Shown here: positions 9,017 through 61,855 of the stretch, piece after piece
How positions within the stretch are numbered: position 1 is the first letter of the stretch
How the letters are laid out: each line of letters starts with the position of its first letter
DNA from: Cenarchaeum sp.
Lineage (GTDB): Archaea > Thermoproteota > Nitrososphaeria > Nitrososphaerales > Nitrosopumilaceae
Length of the DNA: 64,000 bases
Reading direction: 5' to 3'
Assembly (NCBI GenBank): GCA_965242695.1
Contig: CBDESU010000001.1
Coordinates: forward strand, 2,148,537-2,212,536
Translations under genes and position numbers: made by a program
Notes under the pieces: model-generated
The model's input: the letters and a program-made list of their open reading frames with translations, nothing else
Database searches by the model: none
Told to the model about the DNA's origin: nothing

Positions 9017-9143
9017 ATGGTATTAAATGTTCATGCATTCTGGGCGCCCCGTGCTTCTGGGCGCCCCGTGCCGGCGGCATGGTATCACCAGTTCATGGAC
9101 AGGGCTGTTTGATACCATCCAGCTATATACGCTGCATGGTATC
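9017..9143. promoter_or_regulatory. Recombinase/S-layer intergenic region with four ATGGTAT motifs, a 17-bp tandem duplication and TATA-like boxes
   Basis: ATGGTAT at 9017, 9079 and 9136 (+) and GATACCAT at 9111; TTCTGGGCGCCCCGTGC x2 (9038-9071); TTAAAT at 9023, TATATA at 9124. Confidence 0.6.
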
Positions 9144-12100
9144 CAACTCCTACGTATCCCGTATTTCCGTTACTAGTATCATACTAGCCACCATCATGGT
9201 GGCCGGCGGGGTCACGTTCGCCATACCGGGAGCCATCCCGGAGGCCGCGGCCCAGTCGAGCAACGCAAACCTGTACGTGTCTGCCGAGAACAGCGCCTTT
9301 GACAACGTCTTCACGGGCCTGAACGTCGTAGAGGTCGTAGTACGCGACCCCGACCGCACCATCAGGAGCGGCAGCGACATCGCTGCCGAGCCTCGCGTGA
9401 CGGTCGACGGCGACTGGCTGAGGATGGTCCAGGGCAACGACGGCAGCTGGTACGGGTACTTTGCTGAAAACGCAAGCATTCATGTTATAGAAAATGATCA
9501 AGATAACCCTAACGCCATAGATTATGGCGAAAGATGTGATACCGGTCCGGCGGGGCTTACCGGCTACGAGTTCGAATATGCGATGTGCGCCACTGGCGCT
9601 GATCGCGATAAAGACGGCAAGCATCCGGTCATCAGGACCCCCAAGGCGATCAACAATGCAGACAACACAGGCGATCGCGTTAACTTTGGAAGCATCGGGC
9701 TCGAAAGGGCCAACCAATGGCCCTTCATCCAGGTGTACAACTTTGACGACGAGAGTGACATTGTCGTAGAGTACGAAAAGGGCGGCGATGCCCAGAGCGT
9801 CACGCTCTACTATGACAGCGATCCTGACGAGTACGGCACCGGCCTAGAGCTGGGCCGCGACAGGTATCCCTTGGGCGGCGGAGTCATCATGACCATGACC
9901 GACCTAGCGATGAATGTCGATCCGACGGACAGCGACACTTGGACGTTTACTACGGCCGACGATGGGGCATACTACTACCTGTTTGACGACAATGGCATGT
10001 GCCAGGATAACCGTAGTGATGCAAACAAGATCAACCGCGATCTTGATGGCCTTGAAGGCGTCGACGACAACCTGTACCTGACCATCGATCCCGACAAGGA
10101 CGGGTCGACGGTTCTAAAATTCATGGTGCCCCACCCGGGTAACCAGAATGACGACTGTGGTGCAGGAACAAGCACTGCCAAGACCCTGATGATGAACTCC
10201 GACACGAACAACATGGTCACCTTCATCGAGGGCGACCCGGGCGTGTTCACGAACACCAACACCAACACCGATCTGCCCAACATAGTTGTCCCCACCAACG
10301 CGGCGAGGGGCAACACAGCGGTCATCGACTACAACGACGGCGACATATCCGTGGTGGTGGGCCATACCTTTGGGACCATAACGCTAGACGACGATGCAGT
10401 CGGTGGCGTGTGGAACTCTGGTGAGGAGATACCCGTCACGCTCACGGATGCGGATATTAACCGGGCCGCCATGAACGATGAAGACATAGACGTAAGCAAT
10501 CCCGCCTTTACGATAATCCCTAGCGTGCGGATCGGCTCGCCGATCACGCTTGCGAGCGCGGAGTCGGCCATGCTGGGCAACTCCATGCTTGCTGGCTCCA
10601 ACGGCACATTCGCTGTCGATTCGTTCAGCGACGTTGGTAGGCTGATGCCCAACATGACCGCCAACACCGTAACGTTCAAGTGGGCAGAGATGGGCGAAGA
10701 GATCGGGAGCTTCCTCGCAGATGAGGAAAATAACAGGGTCTACAACGCCGACGGCAGCTTCAGGGGCGTCACTTACCCCTCTGCCACGTTCCAGTTCCTC
10801 AACTTCGATGTTCGCTCAATCGGGAGCGTAAATAGCGCAGCCTTCCAGTGGATGAACGCAAGTGGAATGCAGAGCATTCCGATTCCTGATGTCAGCGGCG
10901 GTCAGGACCTTGTCGAAATAACCAATGTCGACGTGTCCATGATTCCTGACGATGCTGACGTTTACATCATGCTGAACTTTGGTGGCAACACCCTCGAGAG
11001 CGGCATGACATACCCTGTTGTAGTCGACCTCTTTAGCTTTGGCCAGATGGGAGACGGCGTTGCCGCCAGCGAGCGGATCAACAACGCAATCTACCGGCTA
11101 GAGCTTGAGGAGAGCGGCGACAACACCGGCGTATTCGAAGGCACGATAGAGTACACGATGCTCAACCAAATTAACGTCCGTGACCCGGGCACATACAATG
11201 GCCTGGACACAATCAGTGACGCAGTCACAATGGTGGTGCACAACGACATGACCGACGAGGACTCTATCCGTGTCAACTACCTAGACCTGGGCGCCGACGG
11301 CGTTGCGACGCAGATCGCCGACCAGGTAGAGGCACCTACAACATCGGGATCGGTCTCGTTCGATGCCGACAACTACAAGGTGGCCGACACGGTCACCGTG
11401 ACCCTTGAGGATGCAGACATGAACACAGCAGTCGAGACGATCGAGATATACACGGTCGTGGACACTGCTGACGATCCAGCCTATGACATGGTCGGCGTCG
11501 AGAACTACGGCGTCAACAGCGCGGGAGATGCGTTCGGCCGCGTCCTAGACGTCACGTTCGACGACCAGCTGTGGCTTGAGGGCTGCGGCATCAGCGGCGA
11601 CAACGGCCTCGGCTCAACCGGCTTTACGCTGATCGAGACTGGCGCCGACACGGGCGTCTTCACCGGCGACTTCCAGATTCCGCTCCAGTACTGCCACAGG
11701 CTTCCCAACAACGATGTAGAAGTCCGGTCCACCACCGGCGTTGATATGGAAGTCAACTATGTTGACTACCGCGACGCCTCCGGCGAGACCCTAGAGGTCG
11801 GCGACAGCGCCGGCATCAGGGCCAACACCGGCACGGTGAGCCTAGACAGGACCGTATACCCGGTTCCGTTCGGCGTACCGGCCGACTACGGCGGCAACCC
11901 GCCGCAGGGCGCATCGATATTCCCGATCCACGCGACCGGGATAAACAGCTGGCCGGCGCCGGGCACGTTCCTGCCCAACGGCGACCTGACGATCCACATC
12001 CGGGTCAACGATCCGGACTTTGACATCTCGGCGAGCGGCGAGGACACCATTGCGGTCAACATACCTCGCGGAGACCAGACTGCGAAGACGGATGCGAGCG

Positions 12101-14076
12101 CACTTGAGCACGGGCCTTTGAAGGTCACCGTCTCGAGGGGCGCAGCATCCGTGATCGTCGCGACTGCGGGCGGCGAGGCTGCCAACGACGGCAGGATCAC
12201 CACCCTCGGCACGCGGACGTTCGTGCAGAACGAGCAGATCATGCAGGAGGTTCTCAACGACGTAATGGTCGGAACCACGCGCGAGCTTGGGCCGATCACC
12301 GAGATCGCCCCCGACGCGGGCATATTTGAGCTTGACATGGTCCTGAGGTACACCGACGGGCCGTCCGGCAACCAATGCCCGACAACGAGCGTCTTCCAGG
12401 CGCTCGACGGCAGCGACGGCACCGACGCAAATAACAGGTTTACCGACAACGTCAACACGCACTGCATACAGCAGGGCGACATCATCACCGTAGAGTACAC
12501 CGACCCGACCGACTCGTCGGGCAACCCGAACACCGTGACCGACTCGGCCACGTTCGACCTGCGCAACGGCGTGCTCCAGTCCGACAAGTCCGTCTACATC
12601 ATCGGCCAGGACATGATCCTGACGCTGATCGAGCCGGACCTCGACCTGGAGAGCGACGAGGCCGAGACGTACGATCTCGACCTGATCGAGTGGGACTCGG
12701 ACGCGGCCGGCACGACCATGGGCAACATGGGCGGCGGCGCGGTATTCGACCCCGAGCCTTCCGACCTTAGGGAGACCGGCGACAGCACTGGTATATTCCA
12801 GGTTGTAGTCGAGATACCCGAGGCGTTCGGGAACAACCGCGTAGAGCGGGGCGAGGAGATCGAGCTCGAGTACACCGACTTTGGCCCGTCTGGCGCCGAC
12901 TACGTCGGCGACGACACCGAGGACATCAACCTGACCGTCTTCACCTCCAACTTTGGGGCTACGATCGAGCTGGACCAGAAGGTCTACACGTGGACCGACA
13001 AGGTCTACATTACGATCGTCGCGCCCGACCACAACTTCGACTCGGACCTTGTCGACGAGATCGGCGAGACCTCTAGCGACCCGATCAGGGTATCCACGAG
13101 GAGCGCCGAGCTCGAGCAGTACCGCTTGGTCGAGACGGGCACCGACACCGGCATATTCGCCGGCGAGGTGATCCTGACAGGCTTCAGCCACGACGCGGAC
13201 GGCGACACCACAACGGGCAACAACGGCTACGACATCGTCAACACCCCAGCGTCCGGCACCGGCCCGACCGACGGCAAGCTTCCGACGGGCGACGACGACG
13301 GCATTACCGTGTCGTTCGAGTTCTCCGAGGACGAGACCGTCGTGACGACGGCGCTAGTGCGCTGGAGCATAGGCGAAGTGCAGTGGCTAGAGACGAGCTA
13401 CCCGGCGCAGGGCACGGGCATTGTCAGGGTCATCGACCCCGACATGAACCTGGACCCAGAGTCGGTGGACAACTTCGGCATCGACGTGTACTCGGACTCG
13501 GACTCGGGAGGCATCGACCTCACCGTGACCGAGACCAACGAGGCCACGGGCGTGTTCGAGGGGACGGTCTTCTTCACGACTACCGACGAGTCGTCGGGCC
13601 ACAGGCTGCGCGTCGCCGAGGGCGACACGATAACGGCCGAGTACACCGACGGCACGCTCCCGAACCCGTACAGCACCAACGACGATATCGACGTAACGGC
13701 AGCCGCAATCATCGGCACGATCGTGCCTCCGCTCGAGAGGGCGCCGGTCTCGAACGCCCGGGTAGTCGATTCCTTCGGGAACACGCTATCCTCGGTGTCC
13801 GTGGACCAGCAGGTGCAGATAACGGCCGACGTGATCAACGGGCAGGACCGGACGCAGTCGTTCGCGTACCTTGTCCAGATCCAGGATGCCAACGGCGTCA
13901 CCGTCTCGCTCTCGTGGATAGAGGGCTCGCTCAATCCGGGCCAGTCCCTCTCGCCAGCGCAGTCTTGGACGCCCGACATGCCAGGCTCGTACACCGCAAC
14001 GGTGTTCGTCTGGGAGTCGGTCGACAACCCGACCGCGCTGTCTCCGCCGGGCACCGTAACGGTCAACGTAAGGTAG
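9136..14076 (+). CDS. S-layer glycoprotein (Nitrosopumilus-type), copy 1
   Basis: Signal peptide TIMVAGGVTFAIPG, LYVSAEN, repeated ETGxDTGxFxG Ig-like domains and C-terminal FVWESVDNPTALS; highly acidic. Confidence 0.9.
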   Translation: MVSNSYVSRISVTSIILATIMVAGGVTFAIPGAIPEAAAQSSNANLYVSAENSAFDNVFTGLNVVEVVVRDPDRTIRSGSDIAAEPRVTVDGDWLRMVQGNDGSWYGYFAENASIHVIENDQDNPNAIDYGERCDTGPAGLTGYEFEYAMCATGADRDKDGKHPVIRTPKAINNADNTGDRVNFGSIGLERANQWPFIQVYNFDDESDIVVEYEKGGDAQSVTLYYDSDPDEYGTGLELGRDRYPLGGGVIMTMTDLAMNVDPTDSDTWTFTTADDGAYYYLFDDNGMCQDNRSDANKINRDLDGLEGVDDNLYLTIDPDKDGSTVLKFMVPHPGNQNDDCGAGTSTAKTLMMNSDTNNMVTFIEGDPGVFTNTNTNTDLPNIVVPTNAARGNTAVIDYNDGDISVVVGHTFGTITLDDDAVGGVWNSGEEIPVTLTDADINRAAMNDEDIDVSNPAFTIIPSVRIGSPITLASAESAMLGNSMLAGSNGTFAVDSFSDVGRLMPNMTANTVTFKWAEMGEEIGSFLADEENNRVYNADGSFRGVTYPSATFQFLNFDVRSIGSVNSAAFQWMNASGMQSIPIPDVSGGQDLVEITNVDVSMIPDDADVYIMLNFGGNTLESGMTYPVVVDLFSFGQMGDGVAASERINNAIYRLELEESGDNTGVFEGTIEYTMLNQINVRDPGTYNGLDTISDAVTMVVHNDMTDEDSIRVNYLDLGADGVATQIADQVEAPTTSGSVSFDADNYKVADTVTVTLEDADMNTAVETIEIYTVVDTADDPAYDMVGVENYGVNSAGDAFGRVLDVTFDDQLWLEGCGISGDNGLGSTGFTLIETGADTGVFTGDFQIPLQYCHRLPNNDVEVRSTTGVDMEVNYVDYRDASGETLEVGDSAGIRANTGTVSLDRTVYPVPFGVPADYGGNPPQGASIFPIHATGINSWPAPGTFLPNGDLTIHIRVNDPDFDISASGEDTIAVNIPRGDQTAKTDASALEHGPLKVTVSRGAASVIVATAGGEAANDGRITTLGTRTFVQNEQIMQEVLNDVMVGTTRELGPITEIAPDAGIFELDMVLRYTDGPSGNQCPTTSVFQALDGSDGTDANNRFTDNVNTHCIQQGDIITVEYTDPTDSSGNPNTVTDSATFDLRNGVLQSDKSVYIIGQDMILTLIEPDLDLESDEAETYDLDLIEWDSDAAGTTMGNMGGGAVFDPEPSDLRETGDSTGIFQVVVEIPEAFGNNRVERGEEIELEYTDFGPSGADYVGDDTEDINLTVFTSNFGATIELDQKVYTWTDKVYITIVAPDHNFDSDLVDEIGETSSDPIRVSTRSAELEQYRLVETGTDTGIFAGEVILTGFSHDADGDTTTGNNGYDIVNTPASGTGPTDGKLPTGDDDGITVSFEFSEDETVVTTALVRWSIGEVQWLETSYPAQGTGIVRVIDPDMNLDPESVDNFGIDVYSDSDSGGIDLTVTETNEATGVFEGTVFFTTTDESSGHRLRVAEGDTITAEYTDGTLPNPYSTNDDIDVTAAAIIGTIVPPLERAPVSNARVVDSFGNTLSSVSVDQQVQITADVINGQDRTQSFAYLVQIQDANGVTVSLSWIEGSLNPGQSLSPAQSWTPDMPGSYTATVFVWESVDNPTALSPPGTVTVNVR
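9169..9204 (+). other. Conserved palindromic site at the S-layer 5' end (putative recombination core), copy 1
   Basis: GTTACTAGTATCATACTAGCCACCATCATGGTGGCC is identical in all four copies; identity with copies 2-4 breaks within 2 bp upstream. Confidence 0.55.
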
Positions 14077-14094
14077 ACAACACACAGATACTAG

Positions 14095-14140
14095 TTTCAC
14101 TTTTCCTTTTTTCATTTTTTTGAATCCTTCTTTGTGGGGG
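14095..14140 (+). terminator. T-rich archaeal terminator after S-layer copy 1
   Basis: Poly-T runs just after the stop codon, conserved after all four S-layer genes. Confidence 0.65.
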
Positions 14141-14489
14141 GCACTGTGCCCCTGCATCCTCAACTCAGTGGGGGAGAGGGTGCGTTCATGAGTAAGCACG
14201 GCTGATCTTGGCTGAAAGTGTATGGCATCATCCGATGTCGACATGCAGGAACGCTTTGAGTTACACACACATCGTGGCGACGGGTGTCGGACCTGCCACC
14301 ATCCCGCAACGTAGCAGATGAAACATGATCGCGACATGATCTCAATGCCGCGCCTCTCCCATGCCCATGTCAGGGGAATGACGTACACGACGCGTCGCGA
14401 CGGGATTGCCGCAGGGCGCGAACTGATGCGCGGTAAGAGTGGGGGCGGTCCAGACCGTCGCATGCAAGTCGCCGGCAGGGCATAGCATC

Positions 14490-14534
14490 CCCCACGAAGA
14501 GGGATTCAAAAAAATGAAAAAAGGAAAAGTGAAA
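14490..14534 (-). terminator. T-rich terminator after S-layer copy 2
   Basis: Reverse complement of the copy 1 terminator region. Confidence 0.6.
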
Positions 14535-14552
14535 CTAGTATCTGTGTGTTGT

Positions 14553-46216: not shown

Positions 46217-46985
46217 CACGAATGTCGTCATAGCGGCAAGCATACGGGTCATCAGCAATACATTAGGCACAGTTGTTGAGCCGCACCACAAAGAGTCGAA
46301 GCGCCTGCTTGACGCGCTCTTGGATGCAGACAGCGGCTGTCGGTGCGTGGTGTCCCCCACCGTAGCCGGCGAGGTGCGTCGAGTGGCCCGGCGTGCGGCA
46401 ACTCAAGCAGTTCATAAAAACACAGCGATACAGCAGGCCAAAAAAACAGGCGTCGAATTCACCGAAATGCGTCGAATGATTGTCAAGTGTGTAGGGCAGG
46501 CGTCCCGATTTCTTTCGTCAATGACCCCGTATGATCCGCCCCCGTCTCTAGTCGAAGCGTATCATGGCGAGGTCGACAAAATGATCGGGGAGATCGGGAC
46601 GACGTATACGGGGATGCTGGCAGAACGGGCGGCTCGCCAGGCCGCCGGCATGCAGACCGGCCCTGCCGGCGCCGCGCGCCTTGGAGCCGATTGGGCCTTG
46701 GACTGGCCCGAGGACGACTTGGCGCAGTACAAAAGGTTTCTCAGGAGGGAGCCTCTGGGGAACACGAAGGACAAGAGAATACTCGCAGAGGCCGCCGCCA
46801 TTCGCAACATGGTCGGGGGCAGGTCGGGGAGGTTCTGCATCGCGTCAAACGACATGGGGATTTTTGCCCCGGTCGGGCTGCCCGGCGGGCGGGAGTCCCG
46901 CCCGATCGTGGACATGATCCACGACAGGTTTGGAATCACGAGCGGGCTGCCGCGCACGATCCGCACGCTGTGCACGCGAGGGTGA
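46194..46985 (+). CDS. PIN-domain (VapC-like) protein
   Basis: LPDTNVV, VVSPTVxxE, DKRILAEA and IASND motifs. Confidence 0.7.
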   Translation: MKCTVLPDTNVVIAASIRVISNTLGTVVEPHHKESKRLLDALLDADSGCRCVVSPTVAGEVRRVARRAATQAVHKNTAIQQAKKTGVEFTEMRRMIVKCVGQASRFLSSMTPYDPPPSLVEAYHGEVDKMIGEIGTTYTGMLAERAARQAAGMQTGPAGAARLGADWALDWPEDDLAQYKRFLRREPLGNTKDKRILAEAAAIRNMVGGRSGRFCIASNDMGIFAPVGLPGGRESRPIVDMIHDRFGITSGLPRTIRTLCTRG

Positions 46986-47713
46986 AAGGGCGGCGGCGGG
47001 GAGCGGCGCGGGCATGCCCGTGGTCCCGCCCCATCCTGCGGCGGCGGGCGATTCGCCCACAGCCGCATCCCGGGCAGAGGGCGGCGGCGGGCGGATGCCG
47101 CGAGGGGGTGGCGGCCATCCGCATGGTGGCATTTTTGGCCAACGGGCCCAGCCCGGCGGCGGACATGTCGCCCGCGCGTGGTGGGTTTAGTGCGCGCCCG
47201 CCGCCCGTCCGCCGCTTCTGCCGGGCTGGACCTCTCGGCAAGCTCGGCACATGCCCCGGCTAGCCCAAGTCGGCGCGGCCTTGCATGACAGATGCAACTA
47301 CCGCCGCGGGGCGGCCATGGTGTCGCCGGGTCGGCGGGTGGACGGACGATGCGGCCCCGGCATCCCGCGCGGCCATATGCTGCAGAGAGGCACCCGTGCC
47401 GCAGCGCAGGCTCGGACTGCGCCTCTTTCCCCGCATGCTCGCCCGAGACACGGCATGGCATAGCGCCGCGCCGGCCGTCGCGCCCTTGCGCGTTCGGACT
47501 CCTGCCTCGCCCCAAGCGATGCGATCCGAGCCCTGCGGGGCAGCATGCATCCCCCGCGCAACCGCTGTTGCCGCCACCGGGTACCGACTCGGAAAAGAGC
47601 GACTGCGCCCGGCGCCCGCCGCGCCTGGCGTGGGCCCGGTGCCCTGACGATCACGCCCTGGCTTTTTACGGGGGGGGGGCAAGGCACATATAGCGACCCT
47701 GACGAGGGCGGCC

Positions 47714-48280
47714 ATGAGCCAGGCACTGGCGCTTGCGGACATAGCAGAACGCGCAGCGCGGGCATCGTCAGGGAGGCTTGGCGGCGACGGGCAGGCTATG
47801 CTTGCCGACCTGCGCCACCTGCATTCGACCACGGTGACGCTGAAGAGCGAGTGGTTCGAACAGGACAATGACAACAACTTTTGGTTTTACGATGCACTCC
47901 GTTTTGCGGGATTAGTGCTGTGCGACATGATCGACAGGTTCGAGGAGGCGCGAGACGACCCGTCGAGGAGGCGCGCGGCCCTTGACGGCCTGGCCGCGCT
48001 CCCCGAGATCGCCGACATTATAGAGTCGTCCGCCGTCAGGCCGGACGTGGACGATCATGACGGCGAGGAGATGATCGATAAAAAGCTGGCGCTCTGGGAC
48101 AAGGCGTTTGCGGCAGGGCTTGTAAAGACTGTGGAGAAGGACCTTGAAAAGCTCGGCCCCCAGATAGATCCCGACGCGAACGGCAACTACCCGCCCAACT
48201 ATCGCGTAATCCGGCTTGCCTACGACGACGACACCAATGAATTTCACGTGTTGGCTGACACGGACACCGCCGCAGCGTAA
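47714..48280 (+). CDS. 'SQALALAD' protein, copy without an intact PIN partner
   Basis: Intact paralog. Confidence 0.7.
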   Translation: MSQALALADIAERAARASSGRLGGDGQAMLADLRHLHSTTVTLKSEWFEQDNDNNFWFYDALRFAGLVLCDMIDRFEEARDDPSRRRAALDGLAALPEIADIIESSAVRPDVDDHDGEEMIDKKLALWDKAFAAGLVKTVEKDLEKLGPQIDPDANGNYPPNYRVIRLAYDDDTNEFHVLADTDTAAA

Positions 48281-48491
48281 GCGCATGCGCAGCCGCCGTA
48301 GCGTTCGACGCGGATGCGGCGGAAGCGCACCCTGAGGCGTCATGGAGCCTGCGTGGCGCCCGCCCCAATGCCGACATCTGTGCCGGTGAGCGCCGCCTAC
48401 GGCTGCCGACGGCAAGCGCAGCTGGCTGCCCGACGCGCGCTGCCGGACCGCGCCGGATGCACAACGGGGCCGGCCGCTGGCGCGGCGGGAT

Positions 48492-51400
48492 ATGGTATCA
48501 AAAACAGCAAGGAACGGGCATGCCGTTACTAGTATCATACTAGCCACCATCATGGTGGCCGGCGGGGTCACGTTCGCCATACCGGGAGCGATCCCGGAGG
48601 CCGCGGCCCAAACGCCGAACGACAACCTGTACGTGTCTGCCGAGAACAGCGCCTTTGACAACGTCTTCAGCGGCCTCAACGTGGTGGAGGTAGTCGTTCG
48701 CGACTCCGACATCAACTTCCGCGGCGACAGGGACGACGATCCGTCGGCCGAGCCGCGCGTCGAGGTTGACGGCGACCAGCTGAGGATGGTCCAGGGCAAC
48801 GACGGCAACTGGTACGGGTACTTTGCAGCTGCAAACGTCATGGATGCCGACACCAACGACGGCAACGGCTTGGACTATGGTACGTACTGCTCCACTAGCG
48901 ATCTGAACAACGATAGGATCACGGGCTCAGACGGAGCCTATGTCGAGAGTGTTATACGTGGCGACTTTGCGTCAACGGCGGGTGTTTTCCTAAAGGGTAC
49001 ACTCGAGTATGACATCCCTGGCACAGACTGTGACGGAACCGCAGATAGGAATCTGCAAAACGTCATCAGGACTACAAAGATCGTTAGTAACACAGTGCCC
49101 GATGGCGTGAACATTGGAAGTGTGACTCTAGGCGCCGAAGCAATGTGGCCGTTCATCCAAGTATACAGCTTTGACGACGAATCCGACATTGACGTAGAGT
49201 ACCAGAAGGGAGGCGACAAACAAATCGTCACCCTTTACTACGACAGCGATCCTGACGAGTACGGCACCGGCTTGGAGCTGGGCCGCGACAGGTATCCGCA
49301 GGGCGGCGGCATCATCATGACCATGACCGACCTTGCGATGAACGTCGATCCGACAGACGAGGACACTTGGACGTTTGATACCACGGGCAACCAAGCTGCC
49401 TACTACCGCATCTTTAACGATGATGGTGAGAGACAGTATCCAGGAATGCCTAGAACTGATGATAACCTTAATGACGCGGTTGACCGTGAACTCCAGGGAA
49501 TTGACGATAACCTATATCTGACAATCGATCGTAATGCAGAGAATGCGGAAAATCCCGCTGTCGAGATAAAAAGACAGAAGGATGGCAACCAGAACGACGG
49601 CCTCACGATAGCTGAAATAAACAGTGCCGGTGGCGTAGCTGCCATGGAACACATCGTCACCTTCATTGAGACGGGATCAAACACCGGTGTATTCACCAAC
49701 ACAGACAGTGACAGTGACACGCCCAACATTCTGGTTAGCGAAAATGCCGAGAGGGGAACCTCTGCGGTCGTTGACCACAACGACAGTAGTCAGTCCATAG
49801 TGGTGGGCAGCTCCTTTGCAACCATAACGCTAGACGACGATGCAGTCGGCGGCGTGTGGAATTCTGGCGAAGAGATACCCGTCACGCTCACGGATGCGGA
49901 TATTAACCGCAAGGCCATGGCAGATGAGGACATTGACGTGAGTGATTCCACCTTCACAATAATCCCAAGCGTGCGAATCGGCTCGCCGATTACGCTAGCA
50001 GGGACCATAAACGGTGACAAGGGAATGGTGACGATAGGAACCAGCACGATGCCGAATAAGATGATGCTCAACTTTAGCGACAATGACAATGACAATGACG
50101 ATCAGTTTACCGTAGATGCGTTCAGCGACGTAGCTCGCTTGAACCCCCCTGCGATGACCACTGACGACATAGTGACATTCAAGGCAGTGACGACGGGCAA
50201 GGAGCTCCTGTCGTTCCTCAAGAACGACACGGCACAGCCCGCGGACATGGTGAACATAAAGCCCAAGCCAGCAACGTTTCAGTTCCTAAACTTTGACGTT
50301 GGCTCGATCGGAAAGGTAAGCAGCGTAATGTTCCAGTGGAAGAACACAACCGACAGTGAGGTACAGAACCAAGAAATCAAAAACCAAAAAGGCGAGTCAA
50401 TCACGGGTAGCGATGGTCTTGTGGACATAACTAATGTGACTCTAACCAATATTGCAGATACGGATACTGCGCAAGTCGACATAGTGTTGGACTTTGCAAG
50501 TACCGATTTCAAGAAAGGAGATGCGTATCCCGTTGTAGTCGACCTCTTTAGCTTTGGCCAAAAAGGCGACGGTGTTGCCCCTGGTGACAGGATCAACAAC
50601 GCCATCTATAGGCTTGAGCTGGAGGAGAGCGGCGACAACACCGGCGTGTTTGAGGGCACGATGGAGTACATCATGCTCAACCAGATCAACGTCCGGCAAG
50701 CTTCCACCTACGAGGACATCGACCCCATAAGCGACGCAGTCGTTATGATTGTGCACAACGACATGACCGACGAGGACTCTGTCCGCGTCAACTACCTAGA
50801 CCTGGGCGCCGACGGCGTTGCGACGCAGATCGCCGACCAGGTAGAGGCACCTACGACATCGGGCTCGGTCTCGTTCGACGCCGACAACTACAAGGTGGCC
50901 GACACGGTCACTGTGACCCTAGAAGACGCCGACATGAACACTGCTGTCGAGACGATCGAGATCTACACGGTCGTGACTCAGACTTATGCTTCGAAGAATG
51001 CCGATGGAAAGGACATTACTGTCAACGATCCCGCCTTCGACATGGTAGGTGTGGGGGAATATGGCAGGGCCGGCGGCATCGCCAGCGGCGACGCCCTTGG
51101 CCGCGTCCTAGACATTACATTCGACGACCAGCTGTGGCTCAAGGGCTGCGGCATCAGCGGCGACAACGGCCTCGCCTCGACCGGCTTTACACTGATCGAG
51201 ACGGGCGCTGACACAGGCGTCTTTACCGGCGACTTCCAGATTCCGTTGCAGTACTGCCACAGGGTTGGCAACACGATGGAAGCCAGGTCTACCACCGGCG
51301 TCGACATGGAGGTCAACTATGTCGACTATCGGGATGCATCCGGCGAGACCATTGAGGTCGGCGACAGCGCCGGCGTCAGGGCCAACACTGGCTCCGTAAA

Positions 51401-53687: not shown

Positions 53688-53704
53688 ACGACAAAAGATA
53701 CTAG

Positions 53705-53750
53705 TTTCACTTTCCTTTTTTCATTTTTTTAAATCCTTCTTCGTGGGGGA
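53705..53750 (+). terminator. T-rich terminator after S-layer copy 3
   Basis: Poly-T runs after the stop codon. Confidence 0.6.
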
Positions 53751-54317
53751 TGCTGTGCCCCCACATGCACGTCATGTTTGATATGGGCCAACTGTGAGAT
53801 ACATGATGTTGCCAAGTCGTTGACCTGCCCAGTCTCGGGAAGTGCCCCGCTGCCTGTTGACGAGTCCCGACCGGCCACCGCACCGCTGTCGCTGCCCCCT
53901 GACGAGGGCAGCGGGCGGAATACCGTCGAGTGTCGATCTATATGGCATCCGGACATGTCGTGCCTTGTCAAGCGGCGCACGGCCGCGGATGATCCGTTGG
54001 TTATCCGTCCCCCGCTTAGCAGGCGCAGTGTAGGTTGGTTCCGATCGACAATGGCGGTGCACGACCACCGCATGCCTCCGAGAGTCCCGTTGTCCCTGCA
54101 CCCGGTAAGAGACCGACATGAACGCAACCGTTCCGCCGCTATAGGGGGCAGGCCGCCTGTTCGGACGCCTGTCGGGACGTTTGTCGCCGAGTGCACCCCG
54201 CCTGTCCCCGACCCCTAGGCGCCGTGCGTTCCCGTGCTGGCGCGCGGGCTTGCACGGCTTGTGATTTTTCGTCCTGCCGGGCGCCAGGGCCCTGATGGCG
54301 CCCGTGCCATGTGCATG

Positions 54318-55103
54318 TCATCTGCTACCAGGTACCGCTGCGCGGGCGGTGGCCGCCCATGCGGCCGCCGCATTGCCTGCAGCTGTGGCGAATTCAGTCC
54401 ATGCATCCGCCGCCGCGGACGTTTCCTTCGCACCGGCATCCGCCGCCGCCGCTGCGTCCTTCATCGCCGCTATTGCCTGCTTATCTGCCTCGGCCGCATC
54501 GGCGGCCACCGGAACCAGGTCTATCCGCACCCCCGCACTCGCCGCCGCCGCCGCATGCATGGCCGCGGCGGCGGCGGCGGCCGCAACCGACGCTGCGCGG
54601 GATGCCGCCGCATCAGCCGCCTGCTCATCCGCCGCTGCGCGGGATGCCGCTGCCGCTGCGCGGGATGCCGCTGCCGCTGCCGACGCATCCGCCTCTTCCT
54701 TTGCCGCCGCCGCCTGCGCGTCAGCGGCCCGCACCGCGGCCTGCTCTTCCTTCGCCGCCGTCCCGTGCGCGCTTGCCCGCGTTATCGCCGCCGCCGCCGC
54801 GTGGCGCGCATTGGATCGCAGTTCATACTCCGCCGCTTGTCGCTCGTACTCCGCCGCCGCCTTGTACGCCACCACTGCCAGTTCGTGCGCCATTGCCGCG
54901 CGGCCATCGGCTAGACGCGCCGCGCGGCCATCGGCTAGACGCGCCGCACCGGCCATGTCGTCAGCAACCGCCCGGTGCGCGACGGCCCGTTCGTATGCCG
55001 CCGTTGCCCTATGCGCCGCTACTGCCGCCCGGTGCGCGACGGCGGCCGCCGCCGCCCATGCCGCCGCTGCGCCACCCGCCAACGCATCTGCCGCTAATGC
55101 CAT
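54318..55103 (-). CDS. Ala-rich low-complexity helical protein
   Basis: TTAAAA about 25 bp upstream of ATG; internal 21-bp and 24-bp repeats. Confidence 0.45.
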   Translation of the reverse strand: MALAADALAGGAAAAWAAAAAVAHRAAVAAHRATAAYERAVAHRAVADDMAGAARLADGRAARLADGRAAMAHELAVVAYKAAAEYERQAAEYELRSNARHAAAAAITRASAHGTAAKEEQAAVRAADAQAAAAKEEADASAAAAASRAAAAASRAAADEQAADAAASRAASVAAAAAAAAMHAAAAASAGVRIDLVPVAADAAEADKQAIAAMKDAAAAADAGAKETSAAADAWTEFATAAGNAAAAWAATARAAVPGSR

Positions 55104-55216
55104 CAAAGTGCCGCATGGGTTGTATGTTTTAACCTTGACGCTGTGCCCGCGTGCTCGCATGCGGTGCAGTTTGAGCACCATGTTTGGACTGCAGGTTGGC
55201 GGCACCTAGATGATTG

Positions 55217-55618
55217 TCACTGTGCCGCTTGCATGGGCATGCGGCATTCTCTTGTCGCCGCACGTGCCTCGTCTGCCGCCGCCCGCGCCGCCCGCGCGGC
55301 GGCGCGGGCGGCCTCTATTATGCCGGCGTCGGCGGCGGGTGGTGACCCGCGAGACGGCGCGGCAACATAAAGGGCGGCCTGTTCGGCCTCGTCGGCGGCC
55401 TGTTCGGCCTCGTCGGCGGCACTCTTGGAGTTCCGCCACGCCAGGTGCGCGACGGCCTGTTCGGTGCGCTCAATGCTGGCGTCGATGGTCTTGCCGCTGC
55501 CGAGTGTTATCATCATCTCAACGGCGCGCGTTGCGGCGGCGGCTGATGCGGCAGCGACCCCATATGCGGTCGCACGGTCCGTAGCATCTTTGGCCGCGGC
55601 GCGCCGCGCGTCGTCCAT
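55217..55618 (-). CDS. Ala-rich helical protein
   Basis: TTAAGTA about 25 bp upstream; AADEAEQ x2 repeat. Confidence 0.45.
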   Translation of the reverse strand: MDDARRAAAKDATDRATAYGVAAASAAAATRAVEMMITLGSGKTIDASIERTEQAVAHLAWRNSKSAADEAEQAADEAEQAALYVAAPSRGSPPAADAGIIEAARAAARAARAAADEARAATRECRMPMQAAQ

Positions 55619-55945
55619 GCCGCGCGCACGCGCCGACGCTACTTAACTGCTTCGGCCCGCGCGGCCGCATGTGCGGAGGGCTTTGGGCTTACGCACTTGT
55701 GCCCGGCGGGCGCCCCGGCGCCCGCGGCGGCCATCCGCATGCTCCTTCAACGGGCCGCCGCCCGCTACCTGTCCTCCGCTCCGCCTCTGGGGTGCCGCAC
55801 CCGTGCCGGCAGGTGCGTCCCGAGGGTGCCGAACGGGCGCCAACGCTTAGCGGCTCCAGACAGCATTAAAAACACCCGTAGGCCGCCTGCTCGCGATGGC
55901 GGGCCAGCACAGCTGGGGCGAGGCTGGTCCCGGGGGCGATCAGAC

Positions 55946-56353
55946 ATGGGCGACATGGGCGCGATCACCACCAGCCTTCACCTCGCCTCAGAGCTCCTCC
56001 GGCCGTACATGGCGACCCTAAAAGATGCCAGGTCGCGCGGCGGCTTTACAGAGCGGCAGGACGAAGTCCAGAGCCTCTTGGACGTCCTCGTTCCGATGAG
56101 CCTCCACCTCCGGGACATGTCCTGCTTTAACCTTGGCATTGACGGCGAGAGGATGTCAGAATTCCTGCGCCGCCGTCACCGCGAGGGCTGGCCTGCAGCT
56201 AGGGACGACATCATCTCGCTCGCCTTGAGGCTCGAAAAAAGCGGCGGTTCCAAGGCGGCCCTCTCGGGGAAGGATATGTCCGTCCTTGACGGCGTGGCCG
56301 TGTCCCTCGACAGTGTGTGCTCGTATCTGTACAGGAAGACGCGCCGGAGATGA
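55946..56353 (+). CDS. Hypothetical protein
   Basis: Normal amino-acid composition; ATGA overlap with a short downstream ORF (56350-56559). Confidence 0.5.
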   Translation: MGDMGAITTSLHLASELLRPYMATLKDARSRGGFTERQDEVQSLLDVLVPMSLHLRDMSCFNLGIDGERMSEFLRRRHREGWPAARDDIISLALRLEKSGGSKAALSGKDMSVLDGVAVSLDSVCSYLYRKTRRR

Positions 56354-56854
56354 ACGTGGAATATCTGAGGCGCACGATCCGCGATCAGATCGACAGGGCG
56401 CAGTCGCTAGCGGATGGGATCCCGCGCAGGTCCGGGCATGCCGTCTTGGGGCGCTTGGCCGCCTCGTGCAGGGCCGCACTGGAAGGGGGGGGGCGCAGCC
56501 GTTCAACGCCGGAACACGCCCACTGGCGCATGAATGCGGGCGCTGCGGATGAAGGATGAGGAGATGCGATGGTACGGGTGTGCAGTGATCCCCTGCTAGA
56601 GTACGACCACGCCTTTCCGCCTCTGACGGCCGAGAGGCTGCCGAGTCTGTAATTCCGGTTCGGCCGATCGGGCCGAGAGCTATTCCAACGAGAAGGACGC
56701 AAGACAGGGACTGCCACATGCCGTCTCCCTTTTGAACAATGCCGGCGGGGTTTTCCAGGGCGAGGGTGACGCGGACTTCAGTCCTGAACAGAAACTCGTC
56801 GCCAAGCCGCCCCCTGCACCACATCCATGTGCATCACAGGCGGGGGCACAGCAT

Positions 56855-56900
56855 CCCCCACAAAGAAGGATTCAAAAAAATGAAAAAAGGAAAAGTGAAA
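56855..56900 (-). terminator. T-rich terminator after S-layer copy 4
   Basis: A-rich on the + strand; same block as after the other copies. Confidence 0.6.
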
Positions 56901-56920
56901 CTAGTATCTGTGTGTGTTGT

Positions 56921-59900
56921 CTACCTTACGTTGACCGTTACGGTGCCCGGCGGAGACAGCGCGGTCGGGTTGTCGACCGACTCCCAGACGAACACCGTTG
57001 CGGTGTACGAGCCTGGCATGTCGGGCGTCCAAGACTGCGCTGGCGAGAGGGACTGGCCCGGATTGAGCGAGCCCTCTATCCACGAGAGCGAGACGGTGAC
57101 GCCGTTGGCATCCTGTATCTGGACAAGGTACGCGAACGACTGCGTCCGGTCCTGCCCGTTGATCACGTCGGCCGTTATCTGCACCTGCTGGTCCACGGAC
57201 ACCGAGGATAGCGTGTTCCCGAAGGAGTCTACCACCCTGGCGTTCGAGACCGGCGCCCTCTCGAGCGGAGGCACGATCGTGCCGATGATTGCGGCTGCCG
57301 TTACGTCAATGTCGTCGTTGGTGCTGTACGGGTTCGGGAGCGTGCCGTCGGTGTACTCGGCCGTTATCGTGTCGCCCTCGGCGACGCGCAGCCTGTGGCC
57401 CGACGACTCGTCCGTTGTGGTGAAGAAGACCGTCCCCTCGAACACGCCCGTGGCCTCGTTGGTCTCGGTCACGGTGAGGTCGATGCCTCCCGAGTCCGAG
57501 TCCGAGTACACGTCGATGCCGAAGTTGTCCACGGCCTCGGGGTCTAGGTTCATGTCGGGGTCGATGACCCTGACGATGCCCGTTCCCTGTGCCGGGTAGC
57601 TCGTCTCTAGCCACTGCACCTCGCCGATGCTCCAGCGCACTAGCGCCGTCGTCACGACGGTCTCGTCCTCGGAGAACTCGAACGACACGGTAATGCCGTC
57701 GTCGTCTCCCGTCGGAAGCTTGCCGTCGGTCGGGCCGGTGCCGGACGCTGGGGTGTTGACGATGTCGTAGCCGTTGGTGCCCGTTGTGGTGTCGCCGTCC
57801 GCGTCGTGGCTGAAGCCGGTCAGGATCACCTCGCCGGCGAATATGCCGGTGTCGGTGCCCGTCTCGACCAGGCGGTACTGCTCGAGCTCGGCGCTCCTCG
57901 TGGAGACCCTGATCGGGTCGCTAGAGGTCTCGCCGATCTCGTCGACGAGGTCCGAGTCGAAGTTGTGGTCCGGCGCGACGATCGTGATGTAGACCTTGTC
58001 GGTCCATGTGTAGACCTTCTGGTCCAGCTCGATAGTCGCACCAAAGTTGGAGGTGAAGACGGTCAGGTTGATGTCCTCGGTGTCGTCGCCAACGTAGTCG
58101 GCGCCAGACGGGCCAAAGTCGGTGTACTCGAGCTCGATCTCCTCGCCCCGCTCTACGCGGTTGTTGTTGAACGCCTCGGGTATCTCGACTACAACCTGGA
58201 ATATACCAGTGCTGTCGCCGGTCTCCCTCAGGTCGGAAGGCTCGGGGTCGAACACGGCGCCGCCGCCAAGGTTGCCCATGGTAAGGCCGGCCGCGTCGGA
58301 GTCCCACTCGATCAGGTCGAGATCGTACGTCTCGGCCTCGTCGCTCTCCAAGTCGAGATCCGGCTCGATCAGCGTCAGGATCATGTCCTGGCCGATGATG
58401 TAGACGGACTTGTCGGACTGGAGGACGCCGTTGCGCAGGTCGAACGTGGCCGAGTCGGTCACGGTGTTCGGGTTGCCCGACGAGTCGGTCGGGTCGGTGT
58501 ACTCTACGGTCAGAATGTCGCCCTGCTGTATGCAGTGGGTCGGAACGTTGTCGGTAAACCTGTTCTGGGCTGCAGTGCCGTCGCTACCGTCGAGCGCCTG
58601 GAAGACGCTCGTTGTCGGACACTGCGAGCCGGACGGCCCGTCGGTGTACCTCAGGACCAGGTCTAGCTCGAATATGCCCGCGTCGGGGGCGATCTCGGTG
58701 ATTGGACCAAGTTCCCTCGTCATGGACTCGCCGGTAGAGACTATCTCGTTGAGCGTGACTTGCCGCGATATGAACTGCGCCGGATCGGTGTCCGGAACCT
58801 GTTCTATGATGTTGGCAGTGCCCAAGGTCGTGATTCGTCCATCGTTAGCCTCTGGACCGCCCGCAGTGCCGACTATGACGCTGGATGCGCCCCTCGAGAC
58901 CGTAATCTTGAGAGGCCCATGCGTGCTCACGCCGTTGCGTTCTACGGTCGTCTCTATCTTGTCCTCGCCGCTTGCCGAGACATCAAAGTCCGGGTCGTTG
59001 ATGCGCACGTGGATTGTCAGGTCGCCGTTGGGCAGGAACGTGCCCGCCGCGGGCCAAGTTCCGAGCCCGGTCGCGTGGATCGGGAACACGGATGCGCCCT
59101 GAGGCGGGTTGCCGCCGTAGTCGGCCGGTACGCCGAACGGAACCGGGTATACGGTCCTGTCTAGGCTCACCGTGCCGGTGTTGGCCCTGATGCCGGCGCT
59201 GTCGCCGACCTCTAGGGTCTCGCCAGAGGCGTCGCGGTAGTCAACATAGTTGACCTCCATGTCGACGCCGGTGGTGGACCTGGCCTCTGCCGCGTTGTTG
59301 CCAAGCCTGTGGCAGTACTGCAACGGGATCTGGAAGTCGCCGGTAAAGACGCCCGTGTCAGATCCCGTCTCGATCAGCGTAAAGCCGGTAGCGCCGAGGC
59401 CGTTGTCAACACTGGCATCTATTGGAGTTCTATCCTCCCCTAGGGCGGGATCTCCAACCATGCAGCCTTCGAGCCACAGCTGGTCGTCGAACGTAATGTC
59501 CAAGACGCGGCCGAACGACTCGCGGGCGCTGTTGAGGCCGTAGCCGTCAACGCCGACCATGTCATATGCCGGATCGTCAGGGGTGTCCACAACGGTGTAG
59601 ATCTCGATCGTCTCGACATCTACGTTGAGGTCGGCATCTTCCAGCGTCACGGTGACCGTGTCGGCCACCTTGTAGTTGTCGGCATCGAACGAGACCGAAC
59701 CAGATGTCGTCGGAGCCTCTACCTGGTCGGCGATCTGCGTCGCAACGCCATCGGCGCCCAGGTCTCGGTAGTTGACGCGCACAGAGTCCTCGTCGGTGAG
59801 GTCGTTGTGCACTATCAGGTTGATCGTGTCGCTGATCGTGTCAAGGTTATCTAGGTATGTGTTGCGATCGCGGACGTTGATCTGGTTGAGCATCGTGTAC

Positions 59901-61855
59901 TCCATCGTGCCCTCAAACACGCCAGTGTTGTCGCCGCTCTCCTCCAGCTCCAGCCGGTAGATGGCGTTGTTGATCCGCTCGCTGGCGGCAACGCCGTCGC
60001 CCATCTGGCCAAAGCTAAAGAGATCGACTGCGACGGGGTATGTCATGCCGTTATCAAGAGTGGCGCTTCCAAAGTCCAGCATTATGTCGACAGACTCAGC
60101 ATCTGCGAGTCTGCTGACATCAACACTGGTTATGTCCACAAGGCCTTGGTTGCTACCCCTGACGTTCGGTATGTTGATACTCTGCGCAGTGCCGTTGTTC
60201 CACTGGAACTCTGCGCTGCGAAGATCGCCGATTGAGCGAACGTCGAAGTTGAGGAACTGGAACGTGGCAGAGGGATAGCTTACACCTATGAGGCTGCCGT
60301 CCCTGTAGACCTTGTTGTTTTCCTCGTCAGCAAGGAACGAGTCAAGCGCTTCACCGGTAGTCACTCCCTCGAACGTGACAGTGCTGTCGCCGGTCGCGTT
60401 AAGCGTAAGCCTAGCGACGTCACTGAACAAGTCGACTGCAAACGTACCGTTGTTGCCTGCTAGTGGCCTGTCCCCTACCATGGCAGAGGTGGCGCCGGCG
60501 AGCGTGATCGGCGAGCCGATACGCACGCTTGGAATTATCGTGAAGTCTGGATCGCTCACGGTAATGTCTTCGTCGTTCATGGCCTTCCGGTTTACGTCTG
60601 CATCCGTCAGTGTGACGGGTATCTCCTCGCCAGAGTTCCACACGCCGCCGACTGCATCGTCGTCGAGCGTTATGGTTCCAAAGGCGTGACCCACCACCAC
60701 GGACTGGATGGCGTCGTTGTGGTCAACGACGGCAGAGGTTCCCCTCTTTGCCATGTCGCTGACGACGACGTTGGGGGTGTCACTGTCACTGTCGGTGTTC
60801 GTGAACACGCCGCTGTTTGATCCCGTCTCGATAAATGTGACTATGTATTCCATGGCACCTACACCGGTGCTAGGAATGCCATCGGAGTTCTGGTTGCCAC
60901 CTTTCTGCTCCATGATCATTACTGCGTCATTTTCAGCACCTTCCGCATTGCGGTTGATCGTCAGATATAGATTGTCGTCAATCCCAGCAAGATCGCGATT
61001 AATTGCGTCAGGATCAGTATTGGGTGTTGCATCGCCGTCGTCGTCAAAGACATAGTAGTATGCCCCTTGGCTACCGGTAGTGTCAAACGTCCAAGTGTCC
61101 TCGTCCGTCGGATCCACGTTCATTGCAAGGTCGGTCATGGTCATGATGACGCCGCCGCCCTGCGGATACCTGTCGCGGCCCAGCTCCAAGCCGGTGCCGT
61201 ACTCGTCAGGATCGCTGTCGTAGTAGAGGGTGACGCTCTGTGTGTTGCCACCCTTCTGATACTCTACGACGATGTCGGTCTCGTCGTCAAATCCATACAC
61301 CTGTATAAAGGGCCAGTCATTCACATCTGCAAGGTTGATGCTCCCAGTGTTGCCGGGAGCCGCCGTGTTGGCGGCCTTGTCGGTTCGGATGACCGGGTGA
61401 TTGCCCTCGCGGGCGCAGAAGACATCGTCCGTGCCATATGTAGGCACACCAATGTCGCATGTGGGGTCGCCATAGTCTATGGCGCCAGAAGTGTCTGCAT
61501 CCATAATGTTAGCATGTGCAAAGTACCCGTACCAGTTGCCGTCGTTGCCCTGGACCATCCTCAGCTGGTCGCCGTCAACCTCGACGCGAGGCTCGGCCGA
61601 CGGAATGTCGTCGGCATCGCCGCGGAAGTTGATGTCGGAGTCGCGAACGACTACCTCCACCACGTTGAGGCCGCTGAAGACGTTGTCAAAGGCGCTGTTC
61701 TCGGCGGACACGTACAGGTTGTTGTCGTTGCTCGACTGGGCCGCGGCCTCCGGGATCGCTCCCGGTATGGCGAACGTGACCCCGCCGGCCACCATGATGG
61801 TGGCTAGTATGATACTAGTAACGGCATGCCCGTTCCTTGCTGTTTTTGATACCAT
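56921..61855 (-). CDS. S-layer glycoprotein, copy 4
   Basis: Paralog of copy 1; no TATA box upstream. Confidence 0.9.
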   Translation of the reverse strand: MVSKTARNGHAVTSIILATIMVAGGVTFAIPGAIPEAAAQSSNDNNLYVSAENSAFDNVFSGLNVVEVVVRDSDINFRGDADDIPSAEPRVEVDGDQLRMVQGNDGNWYGYFAHANIMDADTSGAIDYGDPTCDIGVPTYGTDDVFCAREGNHPVIRTDKAANTAAPGNTGSINLADVNDWPFIQVYGFDDETDIVVEYQKGGNTQSVTLYYDSDPDEYGTGLELGRDRYPQGGGVIMTMTDLAMNVDPTDEDTWTFDTTGSQGAYYYVFDDDGDATPNTDPDAINRDLAGIDDNLYLTINRNAEGAENDAVMIMEQKGGNQNSDGIPSTGVGAMEYIVTFIETGSNSGVFTNTDSDSDTPNVVVSDMAKRGTSAVVDHNDAIQSVVVGHAFGTITLDDDAVGGVWNSGEEIPVTLTDADVNRKAMNDEDITVSDPDFTIIPSVRIGSPITLAGATSAMVGDRPLAGNNGTFAVDLFSDVARLTLNATGDSTVTFEGVTTGEALDSFLADEENNKVYRDGSLIGVSYPSATFQFLNFDVRSIGDLRSAEFQWNNGTAQSINIPNVRGSNQGLVDITSVDVSRLADAESVDIMLDFGSATLDNGMTYPVAVDLFSFGQMGDGVAASERINNAIYRLELEESGDNTGVFEGTMEYTMLNQINVRDRNTYLDNLDTISDTINLIVHNDLTDEDSVRVNYRDLGADGVATQIADQVEAPTTSGSVSFDADNYKVADTVTVTLEDADLNVDVETIEIYTVVDTPDDPAYDMVGVDGYGLNSARESFGRVLDITFDDQLWLEGCMVGDPALGEDRTPIDASVDNGLGATGFTLIETGSDTGVFTGDFQIPLQYCHRLGNNAAEARSTTGVDMEVNYVDYRDASGETLEVGDSAGIRANTGTVSLDRTVYPVPFGVPADYGGNPPQGASVFPIHATGLGTWPAAGTFLPNGDLTIHVRINDPDFDVSASGEDKIETTVERNGVSTHGPLKITVSRGASSVIVGTAGGPEANDGRITTLGTANIIEQVPDTDPAQFISRQVTLNEIVSTGESMTRELGPITEIAPDAGIFELDLVLRYTDGPSGSQCPTTSVFQALDGSDGTAAQNRFTDNVPTHCIQQGDILTVEYTDPTDSSGNPNTVTDSATFDLRNGVLQSDKSVYIIGQDMILTLIEPDLDLESDEAETYDLDLIEWDSDAAGLTMGNLGGGAVFDPEPSDLRETGDSTGIFQVVVEIPEAFNNNRVERGEEIELEYTDFGPSGADYVGDDTEDINLTVFTSNFGATIELDQKVYTWTDKVYITIVAPDHNFDSDLVDEIGETSSDPIRVSTRSAELEQYRLVETGTDTGIFAGEVILTGFSHDADGDTTTGTNGYDIVNTPASGTGPTDGKLPTGDDDGITVSFEFSEDETVVTTALVRWSIGEVQWLETSYPAQGTGIVRVIDPDMNLDPEAVDNFGIDVYSDSDSGGIDLTVTETNEATGVFEGTVFFTTTDESSGHRLRVAEGDTITAEYTDGTLPNPYSTNDDIDVTAAAIIGTIVPPLERAPVSNARVVDSFGNTLSSVSVDQQVQITADVINGQDRTQSFAYLVQIQDANGVTVSLSWIEGSLNPGQSLSPAQSWTPDMPGSYTATVFVWESVDNPTALSPPGTVTVNVR
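61787..61822 (-). other. Putative recombination core, copy 4
   Basis: Reverse complement of 9169-9204. Confidence 0.55.

Follow-up and report, generated by a model that had tools for sequence, protein, structure and literature searches.

The window analysed here is the final 64 kb of contig 1 of Cenarchaeum sp. GCA_965242695.1 (genome G000: two contigs, 3.89 Mb, 68% G+C). It contains four genes for paralogous surface-layer (S-layer) proteins, designated c1 to c4, which are arranged as two tail-to-tail pairs with a gap of 476 bp between c1 and c2 and of 3.2 kb between c3 and c4. All four copies keep an open reading frame (ORF) at full length (1644-1731 amino acids, aa), and overall identity among them is 76-84%. 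An in-frame internal ATG of c1 at 9136 (MVSNSY...) is the start used in a preliminary description of this DNA. The genes, the blocks into which they can be divided and the associated features are listed in Table 1.

Table 1. Features of the S-layer gene array (window positions; 12/34, 14/23 and 13/24 denote the pairings of the four copies; AU, approximately unbiased topology test; dS, synonymous divergence)
Feature	Position	Strand	Evidence
c1, S-layer paralog, 1665 aa	9079..14076	+	ORF, alignment, NmSLP match
c2, S-layer paralog, 1709 aa	14553..19682	-	ORF, alignment
c3, S-layer paralog, 1731 aa	48492..53687	+	ORF, alignment
c4, S-layer paralog, 1644 aa	56921..61855	-	ORF, alignment, NmSLP match
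5' block, 12/34 pairing	c1 9160..10346; c2 19643-18421; c3 48516-49792; c4 60705-61831	+ (c1)	site segmentation, AU
Core block, 14/23 dominant, short 13/24 patches	c1 10362..13251; c2 18405-15378; c3 49808-52862; c4 57746-60689	+ (c1)	sites, AU
Homogenised 3' block	c1 13371..14073; c2 15258-14556; c3 52982-53684; c4 56924-57626	+ (c1)	dS, identity, AU
AT-rich palindrome ACTAGTATCATACTAG, opens conserved signal-peptide block	48528..48543; others 9172 (+), 19616 (-), 61804 (-)	+	genome search
c1/c2 spacer, outer ~75 bp each side an inverted repeat	14077..14552	.	conserved behind c3, c4 and G004 copies
c3/c4 spacer, 3.2 kb, same ~75-bp inverted repeats at ends	53688..56920	.	sequence comparison
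Tyrosine-recombinase-like gene, 526 aa, divergent from c1	7397..8977	-	Pfam PF00589 profile
U3, c3 upstream flank, includes 188-aa ORF 47714-48280	46348..48491	+	sequence comparison
Inverted U3 copy joined to c4, contig 1 end	61856..64000	-	identical to U3 but G10 vs G11 at 47669

The preliminary description had placed these proteins in the family of the Nitrosopumilus maritimus S-layer protein, and this assignment was confirmed by a full-length match to NmSLP (PDB 8C8K, chain 8c8k_A, 1734 aa; E=0, 1566 bits, query 9-1643), with three aligned query stretches (9-136, 147-1013 and 1045-1643). Judged by this homology, c1 to c4 are members of the NmSLP-type S-layer protein family of Nitrosopumilaceae. 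All four copies carry an N-terminal hydrophobic signal segment (..TSIILATIMVAGGVTFAIPG..) and are strongly acidic (D+E 16-17%, K+R 4-5%). None of the four matched a Pfam family in a profile scan, and a search of the genome with an S-layer query found no partial S-layer cassettes. The public sequencing runs that contain the stretch are sponge metagenomes, or runs filed under two coded organism names; the organism is a Cenarchaeum-like ammonia oxidiser of Nitrosopumilaceae, probably sponge-associated.

The four copies do not pair in the same way along their length. The preliminary description had listed shared motifs that pair the copies differently, and each of these is present in the protein alignment: c1 and c2 share RDPDRTIRSGSDIAAEPRVTVDGD, YPLGGG and PTDSDTW; c3 and c4 share RDSDINFRGD..PSAEPRVEVDGDQ, YPQGGG and PTDEDTWTFDTTG; c1 and c4 share FLADEENN..YPSATFQ, GDGVAASERINN, FGVPADYGGNPPQGAS and CPTTSVFQALDGSDGT; c2 and c3 share PKPATFQ, GDGVAPGDRINN and EYIMLNQINVRQ.STYEDIDPISDA; and c1 and c3 share GCGISGDNGL. 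Counting ungapped columns only, we found 308 parsimony-informative quartet sites, with 123 for 12/34, 116 for 14/23 and 69 for 13/24. Sites for the same pairing lie together: neighbouring sites agreed 176 times, compared with 107.3 +/- 8.2 in 10,000 shuffles (largest 143), and local incompatibility, scored by a measure like the pairwise homoplasy index (PHI), was 0.556 versus 0.651, with 0 of 2000 shuffles as low. At third codon positions only, the clustering was weaker yet present (26 of 5000 shuffles reached the observed value).

Penalised segmentation of the sites gave three zones. Aligned nucleotides (nt) 82-1505 hold 79, 15 and 18 sites for 12/34, 13/24 and 14/23, respectively; nt 1521-4728 hold 34, 54 and 98; and nt 4848-5358 hold 10, 0 and 0. 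AU tests, run on segments of the nucleotide alignment under a general time-reversible model with gamma-distributed rates (GTR+G), returned 12/34 as best for nt 1-1500 (other topologies p<=3.5e-5), 14/23 for nt 1801-2850 (p<=4.4e-4) and again 12/34 for nt 4751-5550 (p<=8.4e-5). The clustered sites and these topology switches bear out the earlier claim that the pairings conflict along the gene. A single topology for the whole gene, named in advance as the contrary outcome, is at odds with these results, each of the three segments rejecting the alternatives to its own best pairing; three or more zones of the gene have histories that differ. The block said to pair c1 with c3 stood up only in part: the GCGISGDNGL motif is there, but it marks a weak, short local patch, and 13/24, although best for nt 3301-3600, was not significant (p 0.16 and 0.05).

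Divergence also changes along the gene. Pairwise dS was 0.60-1.31 over aligned nt 1-2850, 0.13-0.35 over nt 3901-4749 and 0.04-0.13 over the last 800 nt (nt 4750-5550), a roughly ten-fold difference; the low values at the 3' end indicate that its uniformity is young and goes beyond constraint. The last 440 nt are identical between c1 and c2, the last 303 nt between c3 and c4, and the last 192 nt among all four. The variable blocks had been described as more AT-rich than the conserved 3' part, which is what the G+C content at third codon positions (GC3) shows block by block: 0.62-0.78 in the variable 5' two-thirds versus 0.84-0.92 in the 3' third, with a genome median of 0.853 (5-95% range 0.77-0.90; 131 long ORFs). 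The copies of a sister genome (G004) have a like gradient with allele-specific values, down to 0.42 in one block. Searches with 150-aa windows found no lower-GC donor lineage for the low-GC3 blocks among the loci searched; the nearest relatives outside the genome were always the G004 copies, and two windows, c3 aa 301-450 (44%) and c4 aa 451-600 (50-52%), had no close relative among those loci. The low GC3 may reflect import from other lineages, or fast AT-biased change in the absence of homogenising conversion.

We mapped the blocks onto NmSLP by sequence alignment only. In the accessible part of the structural study, residues 35-455 and 466-1498 of NmSLP are handled as separate rigid parts; domains 1-8 span 37-1499, domain 9 runs to 1616 and domain 10 lies beyond; the outermost glycosylated domains (1, 2 and 4) are at the N-terminus, and domain 9 is at the cell-facing base (PMC11153153). 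The first switch (c4 aa 383-389) aligns to NmSLP 447-453, with the following conserved stretch at 453-485, and the second (c4 aa 1370-1410) aligns to about 1459-1499, the border of domains 8 and 9. On this alignment both switches sit near structural module borders. The 5' block corresponds to about residues 35-453, the outer N-terminal module, and the homogenised 3' block to about 1500-1734, the cell-facing domains 9-10. The GCGISGDNGL indel block aligns to residues 911-977, the unique segment in which, in the same accessible part, NmSLP (Nmar_1547) and its paralog Nmar_1201 (91% identity) differ (PMC11153153). The likeness to that pair is two-fold, in that the same protein family is matched over its full length and the segment that distinguishes the paralogs aligns with the GCGISGDNGL block; what differs is the array of four copies in this genome, paired tail to tail and with demonstrable block exchange, and no recombination analysis appears in the accessible part of that study. 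N-glycosylation sequons are few in c1 to c4 (4-7 per copy) and occupy 14 alignment columns, ten of them unique to one copy, one common to all four and none in the last two domains.

Within the family it is common for S-layer genes to be present in several copies, and the layout in G004 matches the one described here: two tail-to-tail pairs with a recombinase gene adjoining one outer copy. We built segment trees from the four G000 copies, the four G004 copies (G4a to G4d) and an outgroup (support in brackets). The 5' part grouped c3 with c4 (99). Aligned nt 3361-4320 gave cross-species pairs, namely c2 with G4d (100), c4 with G4c (99) and c3 with G4a (87), and over the last ~900 nt all G004 copies formed one clade (100), separate from the G000 copies. 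From the cross-species pairs it follows that the middle blocks predate the divergence of the two species. In G000 and G004 these old blocks are combined with different 5' and 3' parts, and the 3' end is homogenised within each genome. Along each gene the nearest neighbour alternates repeatedly between a copy's own paralogs and the G004 copies; c2, for example, is closest to G4d over aligned nt 3241-4921. The clustering of quartet sites was replicated in the four copies of G004 (0 of 5000 shuffles) and in those of a third genome of the same genus, G001 (0 of 5000), which has one truncated copy and was scored on the 3' two-thirds only. G4d, the recombinase-proximal copy (L031 about 11850-12600), has a one-base gap relative to c1 just past the signal peptide, so that its long ORF begins without a signal peptide; either the gene is frameshifted or the assembly is wrong at this point. 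A scan of a metagenome collection for population alleles returned 43 loci, the best 72% identical over a C-terminal fragment, and no close alleles.

We consider it likely that the four genes encode alternative versions of the main S-layer protein and that they evolve through homologous recombination with one another. Gene conversion keeps the last ~800 nt and a 5' signal-peptide block of ~64-90 nt near-identical, most strongly between the partners of each tail-to-tail pair. The 5' module of c3 and c4 was exchanged between partners more recently, and the long middle part consists of old allelic blocks in different combinations in different copies. In mechanistic terms, crossovers would fall in the conserved stretches that flank the variable blocks. 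Since the partners are inverted repeats, a reciprocal exchange between them would invert the DNA between the crossovers and swap the gene ends, and a non-reciprocal exchange would patch one copy from another. Conversion would be most frequent at the 3' ends of close inverted partners and at the short 5' block, with rarer block exchange in between. The expected outcome is a uniform cell-facing base and lattice core carrying reassorted, outward-facing modules, with pressure from viruses or the sponge host as the likely driver. The preliminary description had proposed repeated intragenic recombination or gene conversion that generates coat variants beyond the four visible alleles. The first part is well supported by the AU switches, the contrast between the cross-species middle and the by-genome 3' end, the ten-fold drop in dS and the replication in two genomes; the second found no such support, as the metagenome scan gave no close alleles and the available contigs are too short for phasing.

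Several points weigh against recombination among the four genes, or limit how far it can be taken. When only third positions are counted, support for the middle segment is slight (15 sites versus 9 and 9). No read or contig runs from one variable block across the junction to its neighbour: the Logan contigs of four runs reach at most 960 nt within the genes and end in conserved stretches, and because they are so short the long-range phasing rests on the assembly. The assembly is itself unsettled here, as contig 2 starts in c3, overlaps contig 1 and diverges from it at the start of c4, and the main weakness is that spanning reads are lacking at the very place where the assembly is ambiguous. 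The exchanges may also be ancient events and not a working mechanism of variation. Finally, mean dN/dS (the ratio of non-synonymous to synonymous divergence) is 0.13-0.37 in the variable parts, which does not support diversifying selection. Positive selection was set aside as an explanation on the same measure (mean dN/dS <0.4, with the hypervariable gapped columns outside the scoring).

The two contigs place c4 in two upstream contexts. Contig 2 starts inside c3 (window 49296), is identical to contig 1 over 12,526 nt and leaves it 34 nt inside c4, at window 61821/61822. Contig 1 ends 2.2 kb farther on, with c4 joined to an inverted copy of U3, the two copies being identical over about 2.26 kb with the single G10/G11 exception. 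Contig 2 joins c4 to a different upstream region, with the start MKNEIHRKL; a TATA-like box (TTGTTATATACTA) lies there, 37-24 nt ahead of the ATG, and in G4a this start and this box are both conserved. The ten-G run of U3 (47660-47669; eleven near 62680 in the inverted copy) lies about 45 nt before the 188-aa ORF, between AT-rich elements, and could reflect faulty polishing or be a tract prone to slippage.

If the inverted 5' blocks of c3 and c4 crossed over once, exactly these two contexts would arise for one c4 body. This brings in a further reading, that of a working S-layer switch with one or two promoter-bearing expression sites and promoter-less stored copies, in which DNA inversion at the 5' block or within the genes, catalysed by homologous recombination or by the adjacent tyrosine recombinase, yields new chimeras. 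We regard this as unlikely, although a number of features fit it. The 5' block opens with the palindrome ACTAGTATCATACTAG, which beyond the four genes occurs in the genome only in the contig 2 duplicate, consists of AT-ending codons within a GC3-rich genome, and lies just downstream of the point where the two c4 paths diverge. Across two species, seven aligned copies agree without a difference over a 64-nt run of this block, which exceeds any such run at the 3' end, and G4d, the eighth copy, has the same 60 nt. As an inversion switch would require, the S-layer genes lie in opposite orientations and share a conserved region, and all copies have open frames. In G000 as in G004, it is only the outer copies that have a TATA-like box ahead of them (farther upstream in c1 and G4d), and no AT-rich box was found within 250-350 nt upstream of the inner copies (c2, c3, G4b and G4c). 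On the other side, the two paths may be strain variants or an artefact of the assembly graph, the promoters were judged by an AT-rich scan only, and c3 might share a transcript with ORF 47714-48280. The c1/c2 spacer was unreadable for inversion between species, only its ~75-bp ends being alignable.

The recombinase evidence likewise cuts both ways. The gene adjoins the array in G000 and, as a homologue of 80% identity in the same position, in G004; in G001 it lies about 6.5 kb from a gene pair. All four homologues retain the motifs RGLD, H(Q/E)(L/F)R, IGH and (A/S)YE, which by motif order may correspond to the catalytic Arg, His-x-x-Arg, His and Tyr. However, only 4 of the 31 related genomes searched yielded the protein, and genomes with several S-layer copies, such as G015-G017 and those of other genera, gave no match to this query. 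Its match to PF00589 is marginal (28.8 bits against a cut-off of 27.1), and scores against the NCBIfam XerA/XerC models fall far below their cut-offs. The region between c1 and the recombinase (9014-9143) holds three copies of ATGGTATC (9079 +, 9111 - and 9136 +) and a near copy at 9015; the same sequence forms the start (MVS..) of c2, c3 and c4, is kept in G004 even at sites with another frame, and has 35 copies in the genome. The two c4 paths, the boxes of the outer copies and the recombinase may together fit an inversion switch, and we treat them as leads. An archaeal S-layer switch would then work by inversion at the palindrome-opened 5' block, moving the four coat genes between a promoter site and promoter-less storage, with intragenic exchange making chimeras and the tyrosine recombinase as a possible catalyst; we offer this tentatively, as a possibility on the doubtful side.

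It is very improbable that the mosaics are assembly chimeras, produced where reads of strains or paralogs were misjoined in conserved stretches. The idea draws on the contig break and 12.5-kb overlap that fall inside this gene family, on the start of contig 2 inside a conserved stretch of c3, on short contigs of public runs that also end near that start (at 49281), and on the presence of variants in the sample. At the other contig junction, positions 1-28698 of contig 1 are just 96.5% identical to the end of contig 2, and this 3.5% difference indicates that the sample is not clonal; that junction also contains a long tandem array of about 384-bp units. Misjoining would not, however, be expected to give like clustering in two other assemblies of the same genus, in one of which the array lies within a 3.3-Mb contig, nor block types of G000 that recur as long tracts in G004 (c2 and G4d, aligned nt 3241-4921). 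Contigs 1 and 2 agree at 100% throughout their overlap, and pieces of c3 of 480 and 757 nt are free of differences in a run from another study (X10). The contigs of four runs contained zero strand-changing joints and three 'skip' joints with sides of 21-24 letters. Twelve loose contig ends that were looked up proved uninformative (ten unmatched, one to the c1 5' region and one elsewhere on contig 1), and two sponge-metagenome runs from other studies (X1 and X2), in which the spacer and 3' ends were covered and most of the variable parts had little or no cover, allowed nothing to be concluded.

That there was no recombination at all, the conflict arising from uneven constraint, convergence or misalignment, can practically be dismissed: alignment is uncertain in the indel-rich variable blocks and the third-position signal is weaker, but only ungapped columns were counted, the alternative topologies fail the AU tests (GTR+G) in three segments, dS varies about ten-fold along the gene as well as dN, and constraint cannot yield a 3' end that sorts by genome next to middle pairs that cross species. 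Two programmed systems were also considered and rejected. For site-specific shuffling of the shufflon type, the palindrome, the one candidate site that was searched for, is found at the 5' ends only and is absent from the borders of internal blocks. For a diversity-generating retroelement, there was no reverse-transcriptase family in 44 selected ORFs of the window, and the variation comprises many indels and all base classes.

The closest working models for the array appear to be the slp genes of Lactobacillus acidophilus and the sap genes of Campylobacter fetus, and the closest evolutionary model the antigen families that vary by gene conversion. The L. acidophilus genes slpA and slpB reportedly lie in opposite orientation. 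There, according to the accessible part of the source, a silent S-layer gene is set behind the active promoter by inversion of a chromosomal segment, and the C-terminal cell-binding region is conserved (PMC3666127). The array described here is alike in its inverted partners, uniform C-terminal part, shared short 5' block and one copy in two upstream contexts. It differs in that the slp system is bacterial, belongs to an unrelated protein family and was shown to invert by experiment, whereas inversion here would be read from two contig paths; moreover, there are four copies here, with internal block exchange. In C. fetus, S-layer homologues with a conserved region are placed behind one promoter by DNA inversion. 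The conserved part there is 5' and the variation 3', whereas the long conserved part here is 3', and C. fetus is a bacterial pathogen whose mechanism was shown by genetics. In Neisseria (pilE/pilS) and Borrelia (vlsE), mosaic surface proteins are built from paralogous donor segments bounded by conserved stretches, with truncated silent cassettes and one expression locus; here, in contrast, there are four full-length genes with start codons and signal peptides. In a limited literature search, no paper turned up on S-layer paralogs of Thaumarchaeota/Nitrososphaerota that are mosaic or that switch, and the accessible part of a preprint on the microdiversity of marine ammonia-oxidising archaea mentions S-layer genes only in passing.

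The surroundings of the array are rich in repeats. The 188-aa ORF just upstream of c3 (47714-48280, +) is acidic and has no family match; units related to it occur as three repeats upstream of c3 (43241-48262) and as one, split into two ORFs, upstream of c2 (20289-21293). In the island between the gene pairs, a unit of 300-690 bp is present a dozen times or more at 25108-42884, in both orientations and with 73-89% identity, and its copies overlap small ORFs without a Pfam match. Defence-type genes lie around the array (5903-7321, 23426-24688 and 37840-39957) and encode a protein with a GmrSD N-terminal domain, an N6/N4 DNA methylase and an AAA_15/AAA_21 ATPase. An MG2 domain occurs in a 955-aa protein encoded at 31856-34723, tandem repeats of ~500 bp occupy 956-2946, and repeats with a 102-bp period at 3505-4201 lie inside the gene for a 731-aa TPR protein (3361-5556).

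The S-layer is the sole wall of most archaea. In ammonia oxidisers it is thought to collect ammonium at the cell surface, as described in the accessible part of the structural study (PMC11153153). In these four genes the fixed and free parts of the protein are separated, domains 9-10 and the signal peptide being uniform and the outer N-terminal module and core loops reassorted, which provides structural work with a natural map of tolerated variation. Through block swapping the cell may be able to alter its surface. Coat paralogs that recombine are a classic feature of bacterial pathogens; for archaea, our limited literature search revealed no account of any. Their presence in a sponge symbiont suggests lasting pressure exerted by viruses or by host recognition. 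If the switch were real it would be, as far as that limited search extends, the first programmed variation of an archaeal surface by DNA rearrangement, and in an animal symbiont. Should the two upstream contexts of c4 prove to be real isomers, programmed DNA rearrangement of an archaeal surface would become directly testable.

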